A stretch of DNA of 64,000 bases. Source: Candidatus Latescibacterota bacterium (lineage in GTDB: Bacteria; Latescibacterota; UBA2968). The notes beneath the pieces were generated by a model. It ran no database searches. It was not told where the DNA came from and saw nothing but the letters and a program-made list of their open reading frames with translations. This document shows positions 17,365-27,441 of this stretch, piece after piece (position 1 is the first letter of the stretch; every line of letters starts with the position of its first letter). The DNA lies in contig OZ242311.1 of assembly GCA_965207885.1 (NCBI GenBank), positions 1,568,001 through 1,632,000 on the forward strand, read 5' to 3'. Position numbers and translations under genes: made by a program.

Positions 17365-17572
17365 CAATCCGTACATTGGTATTACCATTATCGATAAGGA
17401 AACCAAAGAGGATAAATTTTCGGTCATTATCGATGTGAAGACGGCAGAGGATGGGGCTATTGTGTATGACCCAAGAGATACTGAAAGACCAAAGAGATAC
17501 GATATTTCTATTACGGAGTACACGCCCGGTCCTGATGGCTTAGAAACTAAAGACATATTAAATACGTTTTGA
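17357..17572 (+). CDS. Small hypothetical protein (71 aa)
   Basis: AAGGAG SD; coupled to the upstream ORF; beta-strand-like composition. Confidence 0.55.
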   Translation: MPDNPYIGITIIDKETKEDKFSVIIDVKTAEDGAIVYDPRDTERPKRYDISITEYTPGPDGLETKDILNTF

Positions 17573-17915
17573 TCTTTAACAAAAAACGTATTTATATAAA
17601 AACCCCCACCATAATTGGTGGGGCATACGCATCAAGTTAAGGGTTGAACAAGAGGCAGTTCCCGAGGTATCTTACTGTTGACCAAGACAGTAAACATACC
17701 CAAGGAGCTGCCTCAATGTGTAAGTGGACTTGACCCGTTTTAGATGCTGTTGCCGAATTGGTCGAGAGGTAGTCAGCAGTTGTAAAAACGGCTGTTTGTG
17801 GCCTGAATACAAGCTCTGTATGGACAGAATTTGGAATTCGGCAACAGCATCGTTTTAGTGGACAACTTATCTCTTTCGGCACTATTCTACATAGTCCCCA
17901 ATCTTTAATAGCTAT

Positions 17916-18134
17916 TTACGCAAACATCAAACGTCCTTTTGGCTCGGGAATGGGACGACCTAAATTTTTCGCCGTTTCAATCCATTCTTCGATAATGACA
18001 TCAACATTTTGCAATGCCTCATAATAAGTCGAACCATCTGCTGCACAGCCCGCAAGTTCCGGGACCTCAGCGATAAATGCCTCGTCTTCCTCACTCCAAT
18101 AAATGATGATTTCGTATTTGTGAATAGTAGTCAT
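17916..18134 (-). CDS. hicB: HicB family antitoxin (short, no adjacent hicA)
   Basis: YEIIIYWSEEDEAFIAEVPELAGCAADG-T--EAL…WIETAK--GRPIPEPKGRL. Confidence 0.88.
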   Translation of the reverse strand: MTTIHKYEIIIYWSEEDEAFIAEVPELAGCAADGSTYYEALQNVDVIIEEWIETAKNLGRPIPEPKGRLMFA

Positions 18135-18165
18135 TGGTTTGATTCCTGAAAAGAAGTGTTTTTGG

Positions 18166-18954
18166 TCAAACAGATTCGCCAAAAGCACTTTCTTTATAGT
18201 GTTTCTTATGTTCTTCATCTATCAGTTCTGTAGAAGATACATCCTCAAGAAGGGCATAATCCTCAACGAACTCTTTGAATTTTGCTCCTCGTTCGCTCAG
18301 ACAATTGTAAAAGAGAAGCCCCAATTCATAACTTGATAATTGTGCGCGGACGAGATTGGTATAGCGTTTTGTATCTTCTTCGAGAAGATCGCTATGATGA
18401 TCAACAAATTTGACAACATTGTACAGATGTCTAAAGTAATACCCCACAACTGGTTCATAGGGAATTAAAAAACTTTCATAAGTATCATTGAGAATCTTTG
18501 CTTCAGGAGTATTACTATTTGCAGCTTGTTGGATTTCGGGATAATGTTCTTCTTTCAAATCATTAAGCATTCTAATAAAGCACCCCCGTCCGTGTGCTCT
18601 ACCCTGAATCTCTATAGCATTAACAATATCATTATGCAGGCTAAGAAGTTGAAAAAAGGCATTTCCAAAATTCTGCTTTTGAAGTTGTTCTTTTTGGAGT
18701 GCGAGTTCCTGCTGCTGAACGTGTAGCGTCCAAATGAGAATAGCAAAAGCCAGTCCAGTAAACAAAGCGGTGACGAAGCCAAAAGAATCGCCCCATTGTC
18801 CCCTTTTTTCAACGTGAGGGACAAAATCTGGGAAAATCCATACTCCCCAAAGAATGAGCAAACCAGAGAGACCGACAAATATTCCCAAACCTTTCAAACC
18901 TGTTTTAATTTTTTTCCACCAGTCCATTTTCGATTTATCAGAATTTTTGTTCAT
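18166..18954 (-). CDS. Putative phage abortive infection protein (putAbiC-like), two N-terminal TM segments
   Basis: GQWGDSFG…LF-GLAF, Q-F---FFQLL, YFRHLYNVVKFVD and RAQLSSYEL-LLFYNCL motifs. Confidence 0.8.
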   Translation of the reverse strand: MNKNSDKSKMDWWKKIKTGLKGLGIFVGLSGLLILWGVWIFPDFVPHVEKRGQWGDSFGFVTALFTGLAFAILIWTLHVQQQELALQKEQLQKQNFGNAFFQLLSLHNDIVNAIEIQGRAHGRGCFIRMLNDLKEEHYPEIQQAANSNTPEAKILNDTYESFLIPYEPVVGYYFRHLYNVVKFVDHHSDLLEEDTKRYTNLVRAQLSSYELGLLFYNCLSERGAKFKEFVEDYALLEDVSSTELIDEEHKKHYKESAFGESV

Positions 18955-18968
18955 GTAAACAATCGTTT

Positions 18969-21557
18969 CTATATTTGCTCGTGGTCATTTATTTTTAATG
19001 CCTGGTACAGGCTGTCCTTAAACTTATTTTCGTCTTCGTTGTTGTAAAACGGCACGCCTATCAAACGGTATTTCTCGTTCTCAAACGTCAAGGTTTGGCA
19101 GTCAAACTCAGAAGTGATCTCCTGTAAGAAGATTTCCTTCCAACGGTCACTCTCTTTCAGATGCTTGCCCTTGGGTTCGATAAACATCTGATAGGTAAGC
19201 ATATTTCCATCTTGTTCGCGCAGGAACAGAACAAAATCTGGCTCAAATGCCTGTCCATCGTCAAAATTGTAAATTTTGAAATGCCTCTCGTTTCGCAGCA
19301 GATATATCTCGTCGTAATTTTCTGTTAGCTTGCTCATCTGGCGGTCAAGCATTCGCACAAATGCCTTTTCTTCGCTTGTGCCGTAAACCGTATTGAAGGC
19401 AAACCAGTCTTTGGAAGATACGAAATGCGCGAATTGTGCGTCTTCTTCAGCCTGCGGGTTTTGAACGTCAAATTTTAACACTTTATCCTTGAAGATTTTA
19501 TGCACCCTATCGCGCCTGAAATCTCGCGAGCCTTCGTATTCGGTAATTTGTTGGCGAATTTCAGATTCAATTTGGTGCAACAGCCCACACACGGCTTCGC
19601 GTTGTTCAGCACGGTTGTCTTGCAGCGCAGACACCTGGCCTTCAAAGGTGATCTCCAGCCCCCCAAGATAATTTTCAGAACTAATGAATTCTCGAATAGA
19701 TGCTATATTGGGGAAATAGCGTTTGAGGGACGCGAACGTAAAGAACGGATTGCGTGCAATAGCAGATTGAACAATGTTCCGTCCGAAGTCTTTAACCTTC
19801 ATATCCCGACGGTTTTCGTCTTTTACCACTGTCCCCTGATGTTCGCTTGCCAAAACTGTTTGTGTGCCACCGTGACCTGTGGCGATGGTATGAACGTAGT
19901 TTTGCATCGTCACGCCTAAATCTTCAAAAGATTGTACCCTCTGATAATTTTTAGGGAGACGGTCATTGAGCCAGACCACACCATATTTGTAGAAATCGGT
20001 TTTCTTGAACGGGTCTTTGAGGTTCAGTTTGCGGGTCACTTCGCGCTCATCCATCATACCCTGTTCAACCAGCGCGGTACGAAGTTCGGAAATATAGCGG
20101 GAATCATGGATACTGTGATAATGCAACTCCTCCAGCACGCGCAGTTCATTTTCGAGGTCATCGTCAAATTTCCGACAGAAGCGGTCAGTGTTCTCAGATA
20201 AAACAAAAGGGAAATAACGCGCTCCGCGACCGATGAGTTGCGCTTCGGACATGGTTGTTCTCCCAATTCTATTCTTTCCCGAGTCACGCGCTTCGTAACA
20301 GCGAACAATGTCGAACAGATTCAGTACATCCCAACCCTCATTGAGTTTTTGTACAGCAAAAATAGCGCGGATGAGATTGTCCCGATCTTCGAGCGTGTTG
20401 ACCAGTATTTGGTAGTTCTCCTTCTCTTTTTCTGCGTTGACTGAGATACAGTAATCTTCCTGAAATGCTCGCTTCAAGCGTTCTGCCAACTGCGCGTCGA
20501 TGATATTATGATCATCAAAGAATTGAAATGCCCGCTGAACAAGGGGAATATCTGACCTGCGAACGCGAGCAATCTGTCCTGCAGTGAGACCATCAACAAG
20601 CGTATGAAAGTTGGCCTTATTCTCTTGCGATTGTGCAATCGTACGCTGTGCTTTGAACAAAATCACGGGTTTGAGGTTGATCTGATATTTCGCCGCCACT
20701 TCCTGCTTGTACTGGCTCAAAATCAGAGCTTGCAGGATGCGCTCATTCAGGTCGAAGTCGGATTGCACAATGACCACATCTTTTGAAAAACGGTCGTTGC
20801 GGAATTGCAGCAAGTCATAGCGATATAACACCTTGTTGCGGTATTTTTCCACCATCGCAGGCGTCTCGTAATCGTGCGTGGCGGTAAATTCCAGTAGCAG
20901 GTTGTCTTCATTCTGAGAGAAAATGCGCTCGACGGTATTTTCCCAACTCTCGAACATCTCCCGCTGAGACTTGGTCGTAACGTTCATGTGATGGGCTTCA
21001 TCGGCAATCAACACAACCTGGTGTTTGCGGAAGTCTTCAAAAGTAATGGCATTTTCTTTTTCAGTGGTCAGATCGGAGTGTAGTTTTTGAATGGTGGTAA
21101 AACAGATATTGATATCGTTGGGATTAACCGACTCAAAGTTCTCCACTGTCGAGATCCGCACGGAGCGGTTGGCGATGTGAATGTCCGTGTTGAACAGGTA
21201 TTTAATACTGGCAGGGTTGAGGAAATTGTCCCGCGTCTTTTCGATGATATTGGTAGAATTGACAAAAAAGAGAAAGTTTCGATAGCCCTTTTCATACAAG
21301 TAGAGAATCAGCCCCGCCATGATAAGCGTCTTGCCACTGCCTGTCGCCATGTTAAACAAAAAATGCAGTGGTCGTTCCTTGCCGGGAAACTCGTTATCAA
21401 GACAGTGGAAGAAACGGGCAAACGCCTCTTCTTGATAAGGGCGAAGTTCAAATTTGGGATTCAGATTGTCTTTGAGGTAGGGAGGGATTTCATTTGAGAG
21501 AAATCCCATTTGGGAAACAGCATTAAGCGTCTCATATAAGAACTTATCTGCCATCAT
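18969..21557 (-). CDS. res: Type III restriction enzyme Res subunit (SF2 helicase plus PD-(D/E)XK nuclease)
   Basis: FNMATGSGKT, DEAHH, EFTAT, LNEGWDV, QLIGRGAR; C-terminal FEPDF…FIEPKG. Confidence 0.92.
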   Translation of the reverse strand: MMADKFLYETLNAVSQMGFLSNEIPPYLKDNLNPKFELRPYQEEAFARFFHCLDNEFPGKERPLHFLFNMATGSGKTLIMAGLILYLYEKGYRNFLFFVNSTNIIEKTRDNFLNPASIKYLFNTDIHIANRSVRISTVENFESVNPNDINICFTTIQKLHSDLTTEKENAITFEDFRKHQVVLIADEAHHMNVTTKSQREMFESWENTVERIFSQNEDNLLLEFTATHDYETPAMVEKYRNKVLYRYDLLQFRNDRFSKDVVIVQSDFDLNERILQALILSQYKQEVAAKYQINLKPVILFKAQRTIAQSQENKANFHTLVDGLTAGQIARVRRSDIPLVQRAFQFFDDHNIIDAQLAERLKRAFQEDYCISVNAEKEKENYQILVNTLEDRDNLIRAIFAVQKLNEGWDVLNLFDIVRCYEARDSGKNRIGRTTMSEAQLIGRGARYFPFVLSENTDRFCRKFDDDLENELRVLEELHYHSIHDSRYISELRTALVEQGMMDEREVTRKLNLKDPFKKTDFYKYGVVWLNDRLPKNYQRVQSFEDLGVTMQNYVHTIATGHGGTQTVLASEHQGTVVKDENRRDMKVKDFGRNIVQSAIARNPFFTFASLKRYFPNIASIREFISSENYLGGLEITFEGQVSALQDNRAEQREAVCGLLHQIESEIRQQITEYEGSRDFRRDRVHKIFKDKVLKFDVQNPQAEEDAQFAHFVSSKDWFAFNTVYGTSEEKAFVRMLDRQMSKLTENYDEIYLLRNERHFKIYNFDDGQAFEPDFVLFLREQDGNMLTYQMFIEPKGKHLKESDRWKEIFLQEITSEFDCQTLTFENEKYRLIGVPFYNNEDENKFKDSLYQALKINDHEQI

Positions 21558-21559
21558 AT

Positions 21560-21820
21560 CTAATCTCTGTACACTTCTCGCCGATGCCGGACCCGATAGA
21601 CTTCAATCTCCCGCTTTTTTCGGTCAACAGCATAGACGACGCGATAATCGCCCACGCGCAGTCTGAACTGGCCTTGCTTCGGTCCAGTGAGTGCCGTCAG
21701 TTTGGTAGCCTCAAAGTTCTCGGCTAACCACCGCAGTTTTCCAATTACGCGCTGTGCTGTTGCCCTACCCAAACGTCGTACATCAGATTGAGCACGATCC
21801 GAAAATACCACATCATACAT
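21560..21820 (-). CDS. relE: RelE/ParE family toxin
   Basis: MYDVVFSDRAQSD…LTG…FRLRVGDYRVVY…VRHRREVY; ATG overlaps the mod stop (TAATG). Confidence 0.92.
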   Translation of the reverse strand: MYDVVFSDRAQSDVRRLGRATAQRVIGKLRWLAENFEATKLTALTGPKQGQFRLRVGDYRVVYAVDRKKREIEVYRVRHRREVYRD

Positions 21821-23904
21821 TACCAATTAAGCCCCAATTCTTCGGCGACTTTCTCGGCAGGGATAGTCTTTCCACCGGCTTCCACATCGGCGATGGTCTG
21901 CTGGAGTTCTGCGACAAATTCGTCGCGCAATTCCAAACCCTCGTCGGGATCCTGTCCGTAGAACTCCTCGTTTAATTCCTTGTCTTCCGCGCTTATGCCA
22001 AATTCCTCGTCGTCAATTTCTGAAAAATTGACATAGAGTTGGTTCTTATCCAGCAGTTCCGCGAGCAGTTTTTTTTGTTTCTTCAGTCCATTTTCGCCTT
22101 CGCCGATGGCGATGAAAGTATCAACCGCATCTTCCGGGACTTCAGGGTTCACATACCAGTTCAAAAATGAGTTTTCTGCAATATCTCGCCAGAGTTTTAC
22201 AAGCTCTTCAGAGGATTGCGCGGCTTGAATTTTACCCATATAGGCTTCGTTGTATTGCATCAGTTCACAATAGACAAAGTCGCCACCGCCCTGCCAGTCG
22301 ACGGATTCAGAGATGCCACCAGTGTCATATTCAATTTCTTCTGGTAGCTTGTCCTCCTGCCCTAATTTTTTGCCGACAACTTTTTTTACCCGTTCAACGG
22401 GTATGGTTTCCATATAATCCATCTGTTCAACAGTAATCCATTGTCGATGCATCTTGTGAGCAACTGCGGCAGTGGTGCCGGAGCCGGCGAAGAAGTCGAG
22501 AATAAGATCGCCTTCATTTGTAGACATCTCAATGATTTGTTTAATTAATCCTTCCGGTTTTGGAGTGTCAAAGATATTTACACTACCAAACAGACTTTGA
22601 ATTTCACTGGTTCCCTTATTTCCTAAAGGAATATCATCCCATATCGTTCCATAAGGGACTCCCTCTTTTACATCACAAAGAAATCTTTTTAATTTTGGAC
22701 GGCCTTTTCCATCTTTACCAAAATAAATCTCTTTATTTGCCAATAATGTCTCGATTTTCTCTTTATTGAAACGCCAATTGCCTTTTGATGAAGGATAATG
22801 CTGTTTTCCTGTCTCGGGATTCACGATTGGAAAATAGAGAGACTTTACATATCTGCCTCCCTTTACATTCGCCATCAAATTATCCGGAGCCCATACACCT
22901 TTAGGATGGTTGTCCGGGTTTTTATACCTTGAAAGTTGTTGTTCGGTTCTCTGTCTTCGGTTCAAGACTCTTTCCAGCGTTCCATTTTTGCAGAAGGACA
23001 GAACAAATTCATGAGTTGCTCCAATTTTTTTGTCATTTGGTGCACTCCCTCTTTTTTTCCAAATAATTTGTTGATAGTTCTCCTCAGAACAATTGAAAAT
23101 TTCATCACAAAGTATCTTCAAGTAAGGTTGCTCCTTATCTGTTATCTGTATAAACAACAAACCACCATTCATAAGTAAATCAGACGCAATTTGTAAACGA
23201 TTCTTCATGAAGGTAAGCCATGAAGAATGATTAAAATTGTCATTATATTTGAATCCATCTTTTCCTGTGTTATACGGTGGATCAATATAAATCAGCTTTA
23301 CCTTGCCCTGGAATTGCTTTTTAAGCGTATGCAAAGCCAGGAGATTATTGCCCTTTATAATTAGGTTTTCACGGATGGTACCGCGCTCATCACGCCTCAA
23401 CCCCATCACGTCCTCTTCGCCATCCACCGTATAGCGTTTCCAGTTGGTCAATACCTTTGGATCAAATAGCCGGTCAATTTCGTCCTGTGCCAGAATTTCA
23501 TTAAAAAAAATCTCCATACGCTTTTCTTCATGCTTGGTTTGTCCGCCCTCCAATACGCAGTCCTTGTACGGCCATACCAGAGACACTTCACCTCGCTCCC
23601 GCAGAAACTTATCGTCGATATTCAAACCAATCCTGTTGCGGAATCGGGTGTATGAGTCGGCGAGAAAGTTCTTATCGGAAACGTATTCAATGAAGGCGTT
23701 GAGATTGAAAATCCAGTGGCCTTCGATCTCGTCAAAGAATTTTGTCTTGATTTCCGCATCACCAAGCAGCAGTCTCACAAGGTCATGGTCAATCTTCCAG
23801 GCTCGATCTGTCACCGCCGCTTTGACCAACTCGCCTTCGTCGTCAATGAAACGGGCGTCGGTTTTGAGCAATTCGATCAATTTTTCGTTAAAGTTTTTTA
23901 GCAT
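21820..23904 (-). CDS. mod: Type III R-M Mod adenine methyltransferase with a fused C-terminal antitoxin-like tail
   Basis: NLIIKGNNL, IYIDPPYNTG, TPKPE, LDFFAGSGTT; after …LNEEFYG the frame continues with QDPDEGLELR…IPAEKVAEELGLNW. Confidence 0.9.
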   Translation of the reverse strand: MLKNFNEKLIELLKTDARFIDDEGELVKAAVTDRAWKIDHDLVRLLLGDAEIKTKFFDEIEGHWIFNLNAFIEYVSDKNFLADSYTRFRNRIGLNIDDKFLRERGEVSLVWPYKDCVLEGGQTKHEEKRMEIFFNEILAQDEIDRLFDPKVLTNWKRYTVDGEEDVMGLRRDERGTIRENLIIKGNNLLALHTLKKQFQGKVKLIYIDPPYNTGKDGFKYNDNFNHSSWLTFMKNRLQIASDLLMNGGLLFIQITDKEQPYLKILCDEIFNCSEENYQQIIWKKRGSAPNDKKIGATHEFVLSFCKNGTLERVLNRRQRTEQQLSRYKNPDNHPKGVWAPDNLMANVKGGRYVKSLYFPIVNPETGKQHYPSSKGNWRFNKEKIETLLANKEIYFGKDGKGRPKLKRFLCDVKEGVPYGTIWDDIPLGNKGTSEIQSLFGSVNIFDTPKPEGLIKQIIEMSTNEGDLILDFFAGSGTTAAVAHKMHRQWITVEQMDYMETIPVERVKKVVGKKLGQEDKLPEEIEYDTGGISESVDWQGGGDFVYCELMQYNEAYMGKIQAAQSSEELVKLWRDIAENSFLNWYVNPEVPEDAVDTFIAIGEGENGLKKQKKLLAELLDKNQLYVNFSEIDDEEFGISAEDKELNEEFYGQDPDEGLELRDEFVAELQQTIADVEAGGKTIPAEKVAEELGLNW

Positions 23905-24044
23905 GGTACAATCCTTAAAGTGGAAGGATAGGCAACCTGTGGACACGGATGCGGTCACGCCAGCGCGGATACTTGATCTTTAGCATGTCCAATCGCCGGA
24001 CATTGAAGGCGATTTCGTTGGTCTTGGAAATGGTCTGAGAAAGG

Positions 24045-24590
24045 TCAGTCTATTTGAATGACATCATCCGAAAGTTTTCGATCCAACTCAGGTGACGGAA
24101 TAATATCGACCTCAGTCAGCATCTCTTTCTTCAATGTACTTTTTAGAAAATTTCGCAACTTGTCTCTCAGGTGGTCCAGCAGAACAGAAGAATCCGGCGA
24201 ATCCGTAGTCGTTATAAGCCAGTAGTGAAATTGATGCTCTGGCAGAAACGCTTTTACTCGTGCCCACCAACTGGACAGACGACAAAGGACCAACATGGAA
24301 CCGTAAAGTTTAAGGCGGTGCTCTCTGAGAACATCTTCGTAAAGCAAGGCAGTTTGATCTTCGTCATTAAGGTAGCCATGTCTTTGTTTGAAAGCAACGA
24401 TCGTCTGCCCTAAATCGGTTTCCTCAATCAAAACGACGCTTTGTCCATCCTTGCTGACCGTCACATAGTCGCAGCACTCACAGGTCCCAAGCCCGGCAGC
24501 GTGGCGCATGTCGTTTGCTGTGTTGTCCATCCGATATGCTGTGAAGCCGCTGGCAGACTCAATTTCCTCAGCAAATTGTGATAAGCGCAT
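24045..24590 (-). CDS. Hypothetical protein, partner of the AAA ATPase (possible PD-(D/E)XK-like nuclease)
   Basis: Start is 1 nt after the ATPase stop; CDYV…VLIEETD acidic motif. Confidence 0.6.
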   Translation of the reverse strand: MRLSQFAEEIESASGFTAYRMDNTANDMRHAAGLGTCECCDYVTVSKDGQSVVLIEETDLGQTIVAFKQRHGYLNDEDQTALLYEDVLREHRLKLYGSMLVLCRLSSWWARVKAFLPEHQFHYWLITTTDSPDSSVLLDHLRDKLRNFLKSTLKKEMLTEVDIIPSPELDRKLSDDVIQID

Positions 24591-24591
24591 T

Positions 24592-25941
24592 CTACAACCC
24601 CGTGATATAGAGGTCGGAGAAAGGCTGAGTCAACGATTGTTTGGCTTCTGCCATCACCGCGTCCATATCGTCATTCCATTCGGCATCCGGCGGAAACTTA
24701 TTCAACCTGACGAATGCCCGGTCTTTCGATTCTTTCTTTAGATGCACCTCAAGCCACTTGAGGATCGTCATGCTATGGGTGGAGATCACTACATGAACCC
24801 CCTGACGAGCCAACTCAAAAAGGAACTCCGCCATCTCAACCTGCCAGGCTGGATGCAGATTCGCCTCGGGTTCATCAATGAACAGGAAAGAACCGGGTTC
24901 TAATGCCCCTCGTTCAATTAGCAACGCCAACATACCCATGTTGGCAACCCCAGCCGACGTAAGAGAGAGCGGAAATGACCCACCACTTGTTTGAAATTCG
25001 AGATCGCCCGCCTCACTCAGCACAATTTTCCCTCCAATCGCATTGTGCAGACCTTTGTGAATCTCGGCGAAAGGATGATCAATGCGCTGTCTTCTGAGAG
25101 CGACGACCACATCGTAAAAATAAGATGGGACTCCGCTCAAGGACCTCCAGGAAGAGGAACTCGAGTCGAGCTTAATTGATTCCAGAGGATTTTTCAGCTT
25201 CCAATAGAGTTGGGACTCTAAATAGAAGGCTTCGGGAAATGATTGCGAATTTTGAACGATTTGCGGATCGAGTATGAAATTGAATTGGTTTGCTTCTTCC
25301 AAACTCCCTAATCCTTGGACGCTGAAAGACAAGGGGGAATCACCGACTCCTTTGAGCTGTGAAATATCAGATACTTGAAAATTTCCGCTTACATTCTGGC
25401 GAAACTTCCAGGCCCATCCGATATTAATCATCAGTTCCTCATTCCTGAAAACCTTGTCCAACGCATCTATGCTATCTTTGATGTATCCGTGAAGCTGTAA
25501 TACCTCGGAGCGGTCTTCTTCTCTTTCAATGTTGTTTTTTAGGATTTGGAAATGGGTCTTCATCGCCTCAATTTCTGCTATCACTTCGGGTTGCACCGAC
25601 TTGAGCACATCGAGTTCATTTTGGCTCACACTGCTTGAGGCCGCTTCCCGCAAGAGAGAATCAATTTTTTGCAATGCCCTTCTAATGCCAGACCTGGCGC
25701 GTTCTCCTGTCGCACCAAAATCTCTATTCAATTCTAAGATGCGGTAAATCAAACTGACGTCGTGCGCTTCAAAAAACACGAGCGCAGGATTCGCGTTTAT
25801 CGCTCCAAGCATCGAATAGAGCATCTTCGCCACAAAGGTCTTGCCAGTATTGTTTGGCCCAGCGAAGACCGTGAACCGGCCCACCTGTATGGTCGCTTCG
25901 TCAATTGGCCCAAAATTCTGAATTTTTAACTCGAGGTCCAT
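24592..25941 (-). CDS. AAA_15/AAA_21-type ABC ATPase (defence-associated type)
   Basis: KIQNFGPI, Walker A GPNNTGKT, TSAG signature, Walker B FIDEPEANLHP, STHS; AAGGAGG SD. Confidence 0.88.
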   Translation of the reverse strand: MDLELKIQNFGPIDEATIQVGRFTVFAGPNNTGKTFVAKMLYSMLGAINANPALVFFEAHDVSLIYRILELNRDFGATGERARSGIRRALQKIDSLLREAASSSVSQNELDVLKSVQPEVIAEIEAMKTHFQILKNNIEREEDRSEVLQLHGYIKDSIDALDKVFRNEELMINIGWAWKFRQNVSGNFQVSDISQLKGVGDSPLSFSVQGLGSLEEANQFNFILDPQIVQNSQSFPEAFYLESQLYWKLKNPLESIKLDSSSSSWRSLSGVPSYFYDVVVALRRQRIDHPFAEIHKGLHNAIGGKIVLSEAGDLEFQTSGGSFPLSLTSAGVANMGMLALLIERGALEPGSFLFIDEPEANLHPAWQVEMAEFLFELARQGVHVVISTHSMTILKWLEVHLKKESKDRAFVRLNKFPPDAEWNDDMDAVMAEAKQSLTQPFSDLYITGL

Positions 25942-25989
25942 AAGTCCCTCCTTAACAGCCGTACGACAAACCGTGCCCTAACGCGTATT

Positions 25990-27441
25990 TTATCCCAATT
26001 TCTCCCGCAATAGTTGACTCGCCTTTTGGGGATTGGCCTGGCCTTTTGTAGCTCTCATAAGTTGCCCCATAAAGAACCCCATAAGCTTTTGGTCGCCGCC
26101 TTTAAACCGCTCAACCTCGTCGGGATTATCCGCAATAATCTGATCGATCACGCCATCGAGTTCACCCGCATCGCTGATCTGTACAAGCCCCTTCTTCTCA
26201 ACAATAGCCGCAGGACTATCCCCTGTCTCCACCATATCGTCGAAAACCGTTCGCGCGATACTGGTGCTAATATCGCCCTTATCGATCAAACCAATCAATT
26301 CCGCGAGATATTCGGCTGAAACACACAAATCGCCAATCGCGATCTTCCGATCATTCAGAACGCGCATCACATCGCCCTGTATCCAATTGGCCGCGAGCCT
26401 GCTCTGCACACCCACCGCAACCGCAGCTTCAAAATAATCCGCAATATCTCGATCTGCGGTAAGCACATCGATCTGATCGCCGGAAATATCGTAAACCTCT
26501 GCAAAACGCGCGCGTTTGTCCTCTGGCAACTCTGGAATCTGGCTCTGAACGCGCGCGACCCAGGCATCATCTACGACCAATGGGACCAGATCCGGATCGG
26601 GAAAATAGCGATAATCGTCCGACTCCTCTTTTGTACGCATAGCCCGCAAAATATTGCGATCGGGATCATAGAGCATCGTCGCCTGCTCGATCTCACCCCC
26701 GGTCTCAACCAAATCAATCTGCCGTTGAATCTCGGACTCGATAGCGCGCTGGCAATTGCGAAAAGAATTGACGTTCTTGATCTCGACCTTCGTACCGAGT
26801 CGTGTTTCCCCAACGGGCCGAATCGACACATTGGCATCGATCCGCATATGTCCCTTTTCCATATCGCCTTCGGACACCCCCGTGTACACCAGCAATTGAT
26901 GCAAACTCGTCAGATAGTGAAAAACTTCCTCCGACGTCGAAAGATCCGGCTCACTCACAATCTCGATAAGCGGCACGCCACAGCGATTGACATCCACGAG
27001 AGACTCCCCTGCAGCCACAAAGGCCTCCTGGTGGATGCTCTTGCCAGCATCTTCTTCCATATGGATACGCGTAAGGCGAATGGTCTTCCTACCACCGTCA
27101 GCCGTGGGCACATCAACACCCCCACCAGTAGCCAGAGGCATTTCTTCATTGGATTGAAACTGCGAGATTTGATACCCCTTGGGCAGATCGGGATAAAAAT
27201 AATTCTTCCGCAAAAAACGGCTGCGAGGTTGAATCGCGCAACCCGCAGATAGTGCAACGCGCATCGCCAGTTCAACCACATTCTGATTCAACACGGGAAG
27301 CGCGCCAGGCAAGCCCAAACACACCGGACAGACATGGGTATTGGGATCGGCGCCAAATTCAGCGCTACATCCGCAAAAAATTTTCGTAGTGGTCGCAAGT
27401 TGGGCGTGCACTTCCAGACCGATGACAGACTCGTAATTCAT
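25990..27441 (-). CDS. gatB: Asp/Glu-tRNA amidotransferase subunit B
   Basis: [43 protein letters not shown]. Confidence 0.98.

Follow-up and report, generated by a model that had tools for sequence, protein, structure and literature searches.

What keeps a RelE-like toxin in check when its gene lies between the two genes of a Type III restriction-modification (R-M) system and no antitoxin gene stands beside it? The question is raised by a stretch of 64,000 nucleotides, here called the window, from Candidatus Latescibacterota bacterium (assembly GCA_965207885.1, contig OZ242311.1, positions 1,568,001 to 1,632,000 of the forward strand), in which three adjoining minus-strand genes follow one another in the order mod, relE, res, with no open reading frame (ORF) between them. 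An earlier note, made from the letters alone, had claimed that the methyltransferase Mod is itself the antitoxin, by way of an extra C-terminal tail. Based on our analysis we propose that Mod with its tail (Mod::tail) is probably the antitoxin of RelE, and that the Type III operon would thus be locked by a toxin that ties the cell to mod. Homology, synteny and co-folding make this the best reading of the locus; the binding and the neutralisation in it are predictions.

A Type III operon with relE between mod and res

The mod frame is open from 23958 to 21820 on the minus strand, 712 aa from an in-frame GTG at 23958, and its likely start is the ATG at 23904, which gives a protein of 694 aa. The choice between the two starts leaves the tail unaffected, so an artefact of that choice is ruled out. 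The mod body, residues 1-650 from the ATG (21955-23904, minus strand), matches PF01555 (E 2e-50), PF12564 (E 4e-20) and the PADLOC MTase_III profile (PDLC03635, E 9e-171), and the motifs DPPY (YIDPPYN) and FxGxG (DFFAGSGTT) can be read in it; it thus combines the motifs of an N6-adenine/N4-cytosine methyltransferase with the Type III N-terminal domain of a Type III Mod. After ...LNEEFYG, the point at which tail-less homologues stop, the frame continues into 44 further residues (QDPDEGLELRDEFVAELQQTIADVEAGGKTIPAEKVAEELGLNW; 21823-21954, minus strand), which homology, co-folding and the ratio of non-synonymous to synonymous divergence (dN/dS) mark as an antitoxin-derived tail and a predicted RelE-binding module. 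The mod stop codon TAA (21822-21820) and the relE ATG (21820-21818) have one base in common, reading TAATG. The relE gene (21560-21820, minus strand) encodes an 86-aa toxin of the RelE/ParE superfamily, a RelE-like mRNA interferase, and only the two bases AT separate its TAG (21562-21560) from the ATG of res. Both couplings are as the earlier note had read them.

The motifs GSGKT, DEAH and PD...ExK define a Type III Res. The 862-aa product of res (18969-21557, minus strand) carries the helicase motifs GSGKT and DEAH and, near its C-terminus, the PD...ExK-like EPDFV...IEPKGK, and it matches PF04851 (E 1e-33) and PADLOC REase_III (E 1.6e-144); it is therefore a superfamily 2 helicase-like ATPase with a PD-(D/E)xK nuclease, encoded co-directionally beside mod as in Type III systems. 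A promoter and terminator scan returned fewer sites than shuffled sequence and is uninformative.

The tail matches half of a small antitoxin

Where a Mod of this family normally ends was read from a search with residues 500-712, which returned 2229 proteins at E ≤ 1e-5 out of 3830 candidates; the best 120 clusters were compared. Ninety of these stop 0 to ~20 residues past '...LN..FYG', and the tail is present in the other 30 (26 with DPDEGLE, 4 with DPDEGLALR). As most homologues end at FYG, and as the PADLOC MTase_III profile ends there too (residue 670 of the 712-aa frame), the tail is an addition carried by a minority of the Mod family. Mod does read 44 residues past its usual end, as had been claimed, and the extension is by no means common to all Mods, which had been named as the outcome that would speak against the proposal.

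The tail itself (QDPDEGLELR...LGLNW, 21954-21823) holds no Met. When the search was restricted to short proteins it gave 54 matches among 67 candidates. Some of these are fragments of Mod; in the others, proteins of 69-85 aa, the tail matches the C-terminal 43 residues with 60-81% identity (E 1e-4 to 2e-14), and these come from metagenome-assembled genomes (MAGs) labelled Gemmatimonadetes, Chloroflexi/Anaerolineae and Hadarchaeum. The likeness to small antitoxins that the earlier note had proposed is thereby borne out and greatly exceeds what chance would give. In a 36-row alignment of tails and small antitoxins (A1) the motif DPDEGLE-R is invariant, the Mod junction sits immediately before DPDEGLELR, and the N-terminal half of the antitoxins (ADLTIDEF...SEM) has no counterpart in Mod, so that the absence of that half, noticed earlier together with the absence of a Met, is upheld by alignment. 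Neither the tail nor the small antitoxins reached the cut-off of any family in Pfam, NCBIfam or PADLOC: the named antitoxin families (RelB-like NF048017, RelB/ParD NF050811 and TIGR02574) scored 13.6-18 bits at best against cut-offs of 31.9-60, the sub-threshold matches of the small antitoxins leaning to RelB/ParD-like antitoxins and TIGR02574, and the antitoxin profile found no sequence relative in the PDB. On these alignments we regard the module as an unnamed antitoxin family defined by DPDEGLELR...LGLxW. Among longer proteins only Type III Mods and forms of 132-160 aa carried the tail, which, with 134 candidates scored, is weak evidence against fusions to other hosts.

The module is the upstream partner of RelE

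When genomes were scanned with A1, 237 places were confirmed; the best 80 loci were kept and classed by ORF length and by the state of relE. A whole relE follows the module directly in 51 of these 80, a partial relE in 14 and none in 15. By class, 27 of the 43 loci with an ORF of up to 110 aa have a whole relE, 9 a partial one and 7 none; the five loci with an ORF of 111-140 aa have no whole relE, one partial and four none; ORFs over 140 aa, which include the truncated Mod of L005, precede a whole relE in 18 of 25 loci, a partial one in 3 and none in 4; and of the 7 loci in which the module is fused to Mod, 6 have a whole relE and one a partial relE. The reverse test, in which metagenome contigs from the Joint Genome Institute were searched with RelE, found the module directly upstream in 25 of 26 loci, the 26th being cut at a contig end. 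That such antitoxins lie upstream of relE genes, as the earlier note had supposed, therefore holds in both directions of search. The pairs in these metagenome contigs are all free-standing, with none of the fused class.

The overlap of one base between stop and start at mod/relE is itself typical of the free-standing antitoxin-relE pairs (gap 0 in most). As in Type II toxin-antitoxin (TA) modules, an antitoxin coding sequence thus lies directly upstream of the toxin and would be co-translated with it, by way of TAATG. A small, labile, autoregulating antitoxin with a DNA-binding part, the other mark of Type II modules, is not what is found, as the N-terminal half is absent and the module is part of a 694-aa enzyme. 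The C-terminal half alone precedes relE in two separate architectures, Mod::tail and proteins of ~228-252 aa from Poribacteria-labelled MAGs.

The latter, mostly 231 aa long, end in DPDEGLELR...LGLKW with a RelE homologue next to them (for example L047:5449-6141 on the plus strand, with relE at L047:6144-6398; also L054, L058, L060, L061, L063 and others). Their RelEs are 40-44% identical to that of the window and form one clade; the L047 gene lies directly after recG, and the ~185-aa N-terminal part of these proteins has no Pfam family and no usable Atlas match. Forms that precede a PIN toxin hold the N-terminal half and most of the C-terminal half, are without the LGLxW end and carry an extra C-terminal extension.

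RelE looks intact and has no other antitoxin in the operon

RelE scores 48.7 bits against PF05016 (cut-off 23) and narrowly misses the RelE/StbE model TIGR02385 (23.9 bits against a cut-off of 27.9), so that it is best described as a member of the RelE-like superfamily whose subfamily assignment TIGR02385 does not support. Its family profile matches PDB entries 2khe, 3g5o_B, 9g12, 4v7k, 4fxe and 1wmi, of which 4v7k and 4fxe are E. coli RelE. Alignment to the latter pairs R60 with R61, R78 with R81, R80 with R83 and Y84 with Y87, and we take R61, R81, R83 and Y87 of E. coli RelE to be catalytic. As R60, H79, R80 and Y84, which supply the conserved basic residues and the C-terminal Tyr of the catalytic face, are invariant in 31 aligned RelE sequences and align with R61, R83 and Y87 of E. 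coli RelE, the toxin looks active.

The mod-relE-res operon holds no second antitoxin ORF, and the earlier description of an intact RelE devoid of a separate antitoxin gene stands on both counts. An Rfam scan of 17500-26500 returned a single miRNA-like chance match below the gathering score and no antisense or antitoxin RNA. In three genomes with an intact relE (G083, G088 and G117) the Mod tail is the only match to the module. The window genome has a second match (L140), a 125-aa chimeric antitoxin with DPDKGLELR and without the LGLxW end that is followed by a PIN toxin, and its two other ParE_toxin genes are only 32-33% identical to the RelE of the window.

Predicted binding of the tail to RelE

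RelE (alignment A2) and a 46-residue tail (A1) were co-folded with our own alignments supplied. The interface score ipSAE was 0.74 (runs 0.75, 0.74 and 0.74) against 0.01 for the best control, with a partner predicted local distance difference test (pLDDT) of ≥82 and ≥94% of contacts common to the runs; the pair thereby exceeds the pass mark, which in calibration 58 of 80 solved pairs attained and 2 of 110 mismatched ones, counts that are only a rough guide here as our own alignments were used. The predicted interface comprises RelE residues 53, 55, 60, 80 and 82-85 and the strand 4-7. Residues 33-35 of the tail pair with that strand, its helix rests against RelE residues 62, 74-76 and 82-85, and RelE residues 53, 55, 60 and 80 are those of the basic face. 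In an AlphaFold 2 model of the whole Mod (mean pLDDT 60) the tail forms helices at 653-675 and 683-689 (pLDDT 72-75) behind a low-confidence linker, 620-657. In the co-fold, a check that the earlier note had asked for, the tail is thus placed on RelE well above the controls, which as a prediction supports binding between the two.

The fusion recurs, is conserved and has changed Mod bodies

A whole mod(+tail)-relE-res arrangement is found in 7 loci, the window and L006, L008, L009, L010, L013 and L016, and the identical in-frame junction in 9 loci besides the window; the synteny that the earlier note had asked about is hence recurrent. The MAGs that hold the fused loci are labelled Latescibacterota, Poribacteria and Opitutales, and in the phylum of the window a Mod with tail occurs in 7 of 168 genomes, that of the window included. 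Contigs of two other studies bridge position 21954 (X5 covers 18900-22919 and X6 covers 21550-23580), which answers the doubt about the junction raised at the outset; a further contig, X1, matches perfectly and is possibly the window's own source. RNA-library contigs span parts of res and the 3' end of mod, and such contigs cannot show transcription or its level.

The seven RelEs of the fused loci form one clade in a 39-row tree (SH-aLRT 98). The Mod bodies behave differently. A tree of the window Mod, 11 of the 30 tail-bearing clusters and 30 of the 90 tail-less ones, with the tail columns removed and 15 collapsed forms, P0062, P0063, P0065 and P0085 left out, needs at least 5 changes of the tail state, and a single tail clade is rejected (approximately unbiased test, p 4e-39). 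By this tree, no fewer than four or five unrelated lineages of Mod carry the tail. Synonymous divergence (dS) between the window and L006, L008 and L009 is 0.04-0.07 for tail plus relE and 0.48-0.61 for the adjacent 120 Mod codons. The low dS of tail and relE against the high dS of Mod, and the split Mod tree, therefore indicate that mod alleles have been swapped with the in-frame junction always kept. We take it that a tail-relE-res block was recombined onto several Mod bodies and that the fusion is of single origin. In the deepest comparison of selection, that of the window, L006, L008, L009 and L010 with two Opitutales-labelled loci, dN/dS is 0.17-0.27 for the tail (at dS 0.58-1.06) and 0.12-0.20 for relE, values that indicate purifying selection on both.

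Decayed alleles of the fused locus

Three of the 10 fused loci are decayed, and in this small sample it is relE that has gone every time. L007 keeps Mod::tail and res but lacks relE codons 2-69, which an in-frame deletion has removed. L115 has ~200 nt of unrelated sequence in place of relE, and its tail motif reads DPDEGLALR (L115:1687-1818; the same as P0084). In L005 an insertion sequence interrupts mod, the middle of Mod is lost, relE stops after 25 codons and only the last 100 codons of res are left. In none of the 10 loci does an intact relE follow a broken Mod::tail. The change to DPDEGLALR, perhaps a sign that constraint eased once the toxin was gone, is seen also in P0062, P0063 and P0065. 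A contig of a sponge metatranscriptome library (X15) has the same 204-nt in-frame relE deletion as L007, with the tail joined to the start of res (joint at window 21613-21818; L112:1824-1874); it is a relE-less allele in another study's RNA library, in which DNA carry-over is possible.

Fifteen protein clusters (P0066-P0078, P0080 and P0081) are Mods of 457/458 aa, 92-99.8% identical to one another, that have lost in frame about residues 287-510 of the 712-aa frame. The target recognition domain and the FxGxG motif are gone, and the N-terminus, the C-terminus and an intact tail are kept. The only such locus with context is the collapsed Mod at L005:5044-6141, where relE and res are destroyed as well.

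The mod|res junction and the hot spot after gatB

Tail-less mod genes abut res directly, by a TGATG overlap in L120 or with a 1-nt gap in L121, and the ancestral tail-less mod|res arrangement thus exists. In L028/L118 and L119 another cassette lies between mod and res, with a chimeric antitoxin in which the two halves of the family are present and followed by a new C-terminal extension. The one in L028 (3852-9446) is a 132-aa chimeric antitoxin followed by a PIN/VapC-like toxin between a tail-less mod and res. Because L028 also has an antitoxin-PIN pair at this place, the mod|res junction repeatedly receives toxin-antitoxin cassettes. The mod of L028 is split by an in-frame stop (L028:4452-4454) into ORFs of 200 and 464 aa while its res looks whole; a pseudogene, an error of assembly or an off-state could each account for the split. 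An analogue in the window genome (L140:1411-2234), again a chimeric antitoxin with a PIN toxin, lies elsewhere than at mod/res.

The region downstream of gatB (window 25990-27441, minus strand) is a variable defence hot spot in the genus of the window. Depending on the genome it holds a free-standing antitoxin-relE pair, an AAA ATPase pair followed by the antitoxin, or the ATPase pair followed by mod::tail-relE-res (same-genus genomes compared after gatB: L011, L012, L014, L017, L018, L123-L125, L129 and L135). We suggest that an antitoxin-relE cassette would have entered the coupled mod|res junction at this hot spot, and that one deletion would then have joined Mod ...FYG to antitoxin ...DPDEGLELR, which is the simplest history.

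Directly upstream of mod the window has the ATPase pair (24045-25941, minus strand), a 449-aa ABC-type ATPase of the AAA_15/AAA_21 kind that matches PADLOC HEC-02A, PD-T4-4_A and AriA-like profiles with E down to 1e-33, and a 181-aa partner without a family; the two are probably a separate defence pair, which also precedes the locus in L005, L006, L017 and L018. On the other side, 14 nt after res, lies an AbiP/AbiC-like gene of 262 aa (18166-18954, minus strand; PF16872 E 1e-24, PADLOC AbiP E 3e-16) that may be part of the same transcript as res and is common only to L008 among the compared loci. A HicB-like antitoxin gene (17916-18218, minus strand; PF15919, PF21748) has no obvious HicA among the nearby ORFs, and L005 and L006 have copies of the gene at the flanks of the locus.

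How Mod could hold RelE, and what weighs against it

Homology, gene order, conservation, the pattern of recombination and the predicted interface have been computed, and from them we infer neutralisation, toxicity and addiction. The structural side of the earlier note's proposal has thereby withstood the computed checks that could have refuted it, and the release of RelE on inhibition or loss of Mod is its putative functional side. Mod::tail and RelE would be made from one message, translation of relE being coupled to termination at mod. The tail, a helix, a short strand and a terminal helix, is predicted to wrap RelE and cover the basic face of its active site, so that RelE would be held inactive on Mod with up to two RelE per Mod dimer. 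With the N-terminal half of the antitoxin gone, its autoregulation, if there was any, would be lost too and expression would follow the mod promoter. Should Mod be lost, truncated or swapped for a tail-less allele, RelE would be freed and translation would stop. Because RelE has no other antitoxin, the operon, and mod above all, would be locked, and the Type III system would thereby gain addiction behaviour.

Several observations weigh against this proposal. The relE gene is deleted in 3 of the 10 fused loci (L007, L115 and L005), two of which keep res; as these three relatives keep Mod::tail without relE, RelE is dispensable for the R-M system and the lock is breakable. Frameshifted tails occur in three protein fragments from other assemblies (P0007, P0012 and P0049), which may be sequencing errors or counter-examples. 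An Opitutales-labelled MAG has a free-standing pair (L020) beside the fused L013, and the two could cross-neutralise. A stable Mod would make a poor labile antitoxin, so that cells losing the gene might be killed only weakly. As translation is coupled, relE might also be translated less when mod acquires a nonsense mutation, which would soften the lock. Binding, toxicity and neutralisation are all predicted. The success of the co-fold may in part mirror the general likeness of RelB and RelE or solved complexes stored in the model, and the mediocre model of the whole Mod (mean pLDDT 60) does not establish that the tail is accessible in the Mod2Res complex.

A more far-reaching version of the proposal can be put forward tentatively. 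In it the Type III Mod would be the sole antitoxin of the embedded RelE and the R-M complex would at the same time be the TA complex, so that loss, truncation or allele replacement of Mod, or its inactivation by a phage, would free an mRNA-cleaving toxin. Such a hard-wired layer of addiction and backup, which this class of R-M systems otherwise lacks, would have passed between sponge symbionts with the labels of three phyla in the form of a tail-relE-res module, and would constrain the exchange of mod specificity alleles.

Other explanations of the locus

RelE might, like PrrC, serve as a guard that lies latent on Mod until a phage anti-restriction factor, or shut-off together with protease clipping, frees it and brings about abortive infection. 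This is compatible with Mod::tail as the antitoxin, to which it adds a trigger. The toxin gene does lie inside an R-M operon, the predicted binding would tether its product to a subunit of that system, and the setting is that of a defence island, with the AbiP/AbiC-like gene 14 nt after res and the AAA_15/AAA_21 ATPase pair upstream; PrrC/EcoprrI/Stp offers a precedent (PMC12707154), and embedded defence genes are described as backups (10.1101/2024.01.29.577857). On the other hand, nothing in the sequence is sensor-like, the tail being an ordinary antitoxin half, and the analysis of the locus brought up nothing that points to a phage trigger of the PrrC/Stp kind; relE has been lost from two relatives whose R-M system is otherwise intact, and the AbiP-like neighbour recurs only in L008 among the compared loci. 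We consider such a guard rather unlikely.

About equally doubtful is that the cassette is a selfish hitch-hiker or a relic, which landed in the operon, was fused to mod by a survivable deletion and is now decaying, the tail neutralising RelE to no benefit of the R-M system or the host. TA cassettes of this family are indeed common at the hot spot after gatB and, in other forms, between mod and res, relE is gone from 3 of 10 fused loci, and the otherwise invariant motif reads DPDEGLALR in the relE-less L115. Against this stand the purifying selection on tail and relE across dS of ~0.6-1.1, the junction that has outlasted the exchange of the Mod body four or five times at the least, and the spread of the module to MAGs labelled as three phyla, a persistence not expected of a neutral remnant. 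It would be expected of a selfish addiction module, and here the difference from Mod::tail acting as the antitoxin is mainly one of who benefits.

That the antitoxin is a free peptide, translated from a start codon within the 3' portion of mod or released from Mod by proteolysis, with the Mod body irrelevant, seems to us very unlikely. Gene calls of 110-111 aa in other assemblies do start at an in-frame GTG of ...VNPE... (P0004 and P0007), and in the model a low-confidence linker at 620-657 precedes the tail. The tail, however, contains no Met, the candidate internal starts are equally conserved in tail-less Mods and hence not peculiar to the fusion, the promoter scan gave fewer sites than shuffled sequence, and the short ORFs may simply mirror broken assemblies. 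An assembly error, or a one-off deletion private to the window genome, is refuted by the junction in 9 other loci from MAGs labelled as three phyla, by the tail in 30 of the best 120 protein clusters and by the contigs X5 and X6 that bridge 21954.

Comparison with known systems

R-M systems and TA modules are usually treated as separate elements even where they are neighbours, and here they share one polypeptide. To our knowledge, post-segregational killing is known only for Type II R-M systems, and Type III systems have no addiction of their own. If Mod::tail is the antitoxin of RelE, it would provide a testable mechanism by which a Type III system becomes addictive, and it would explain why mod specificity alleles shuffle only upstream of the tail. 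Full-text searches of the literature brought up no R-M methyltransferase carrying an antitoxin domain, though supplements may list such cases, and as far as these searches show this would be the first R-M subunit to serve as an antitoxin. The DPDEGLELR...LGLxW module, widespread, portable and present in at least three architectures, also helps to annotate toxin-antitoxin pairs in uncultured phyla.

Among the closest known systems are Type II pairs of the RelBE family (E. coli RelBE, 4fxe; M. tuberculosis Rv2865/Rv2866, 3g5o), with which the locus has in common the toxin fold and key residues, an antitoxin gene that precedes the toxin gene with an overlap of 1 nt, and a C-terminal part predicted to wrap the toxin. 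RelBE antitoxins are free, small and DNA-binding, whereas here just the toxin-binding half is present, as the C-terminus of a 694-aa enzyme, and the antitoxin family is unnamed, with NCBIfam and Pfam matches far below the cut-offs and no relative in the PDB.

Antitoxin modules that travel on other polypeptides have been described in the fused toxin-antitoxin CapRel and in the promiscuous antitoxin domains of the Panacea type (PMC10440598). These are described as fused to their own toxin or to accessory domains, whereas here the fusion is to a subunit of a separate and complete defence system. Regulatory methyltransferases with a helix-turn-helix domain (e.g. of the Ecl18kI type) also tie an extra function to the presence of the methyltransferase (PMC12707154); the extra domain there is an N-terminal transcription factor that controls R-M expression, whereas in our case it is a C-terminal peptide predicted to neutralise a toxin.

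Defence genes embedded in Hma, BREX, DISARM and RM operons, for which a backup role is proposed (10.1101/2024.01.29.577857), resemble the present locus, in the part of that work accessible to us, in that an extra toxin or defence gene is nested among the genes of a modification-based system. The embedded cassettes presented there are self-contained and none is described as sharing a polypeptide with the host methyltransferase, though the supplements may list such cases.

A further close parallel is EcoprrI, a Type IC R-M system of E. coli whose embedded PrrC anticodon nuclease is thought to be silenced by contact with the R-M proteins (PMC12707154). In both systems the gene of a translation-blocking RNase lies inside an R-M operon. 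PrrC is a large ABC-ATPase-type anticodon nuclease without an antitoxin domain that is masked by the whole Type I complex and triggered by T4 Stp, whereas here the toxin is a small RelE, the system is of Type III, and the masking is predicted to come about through an antitoxin fragment fused to Mod.

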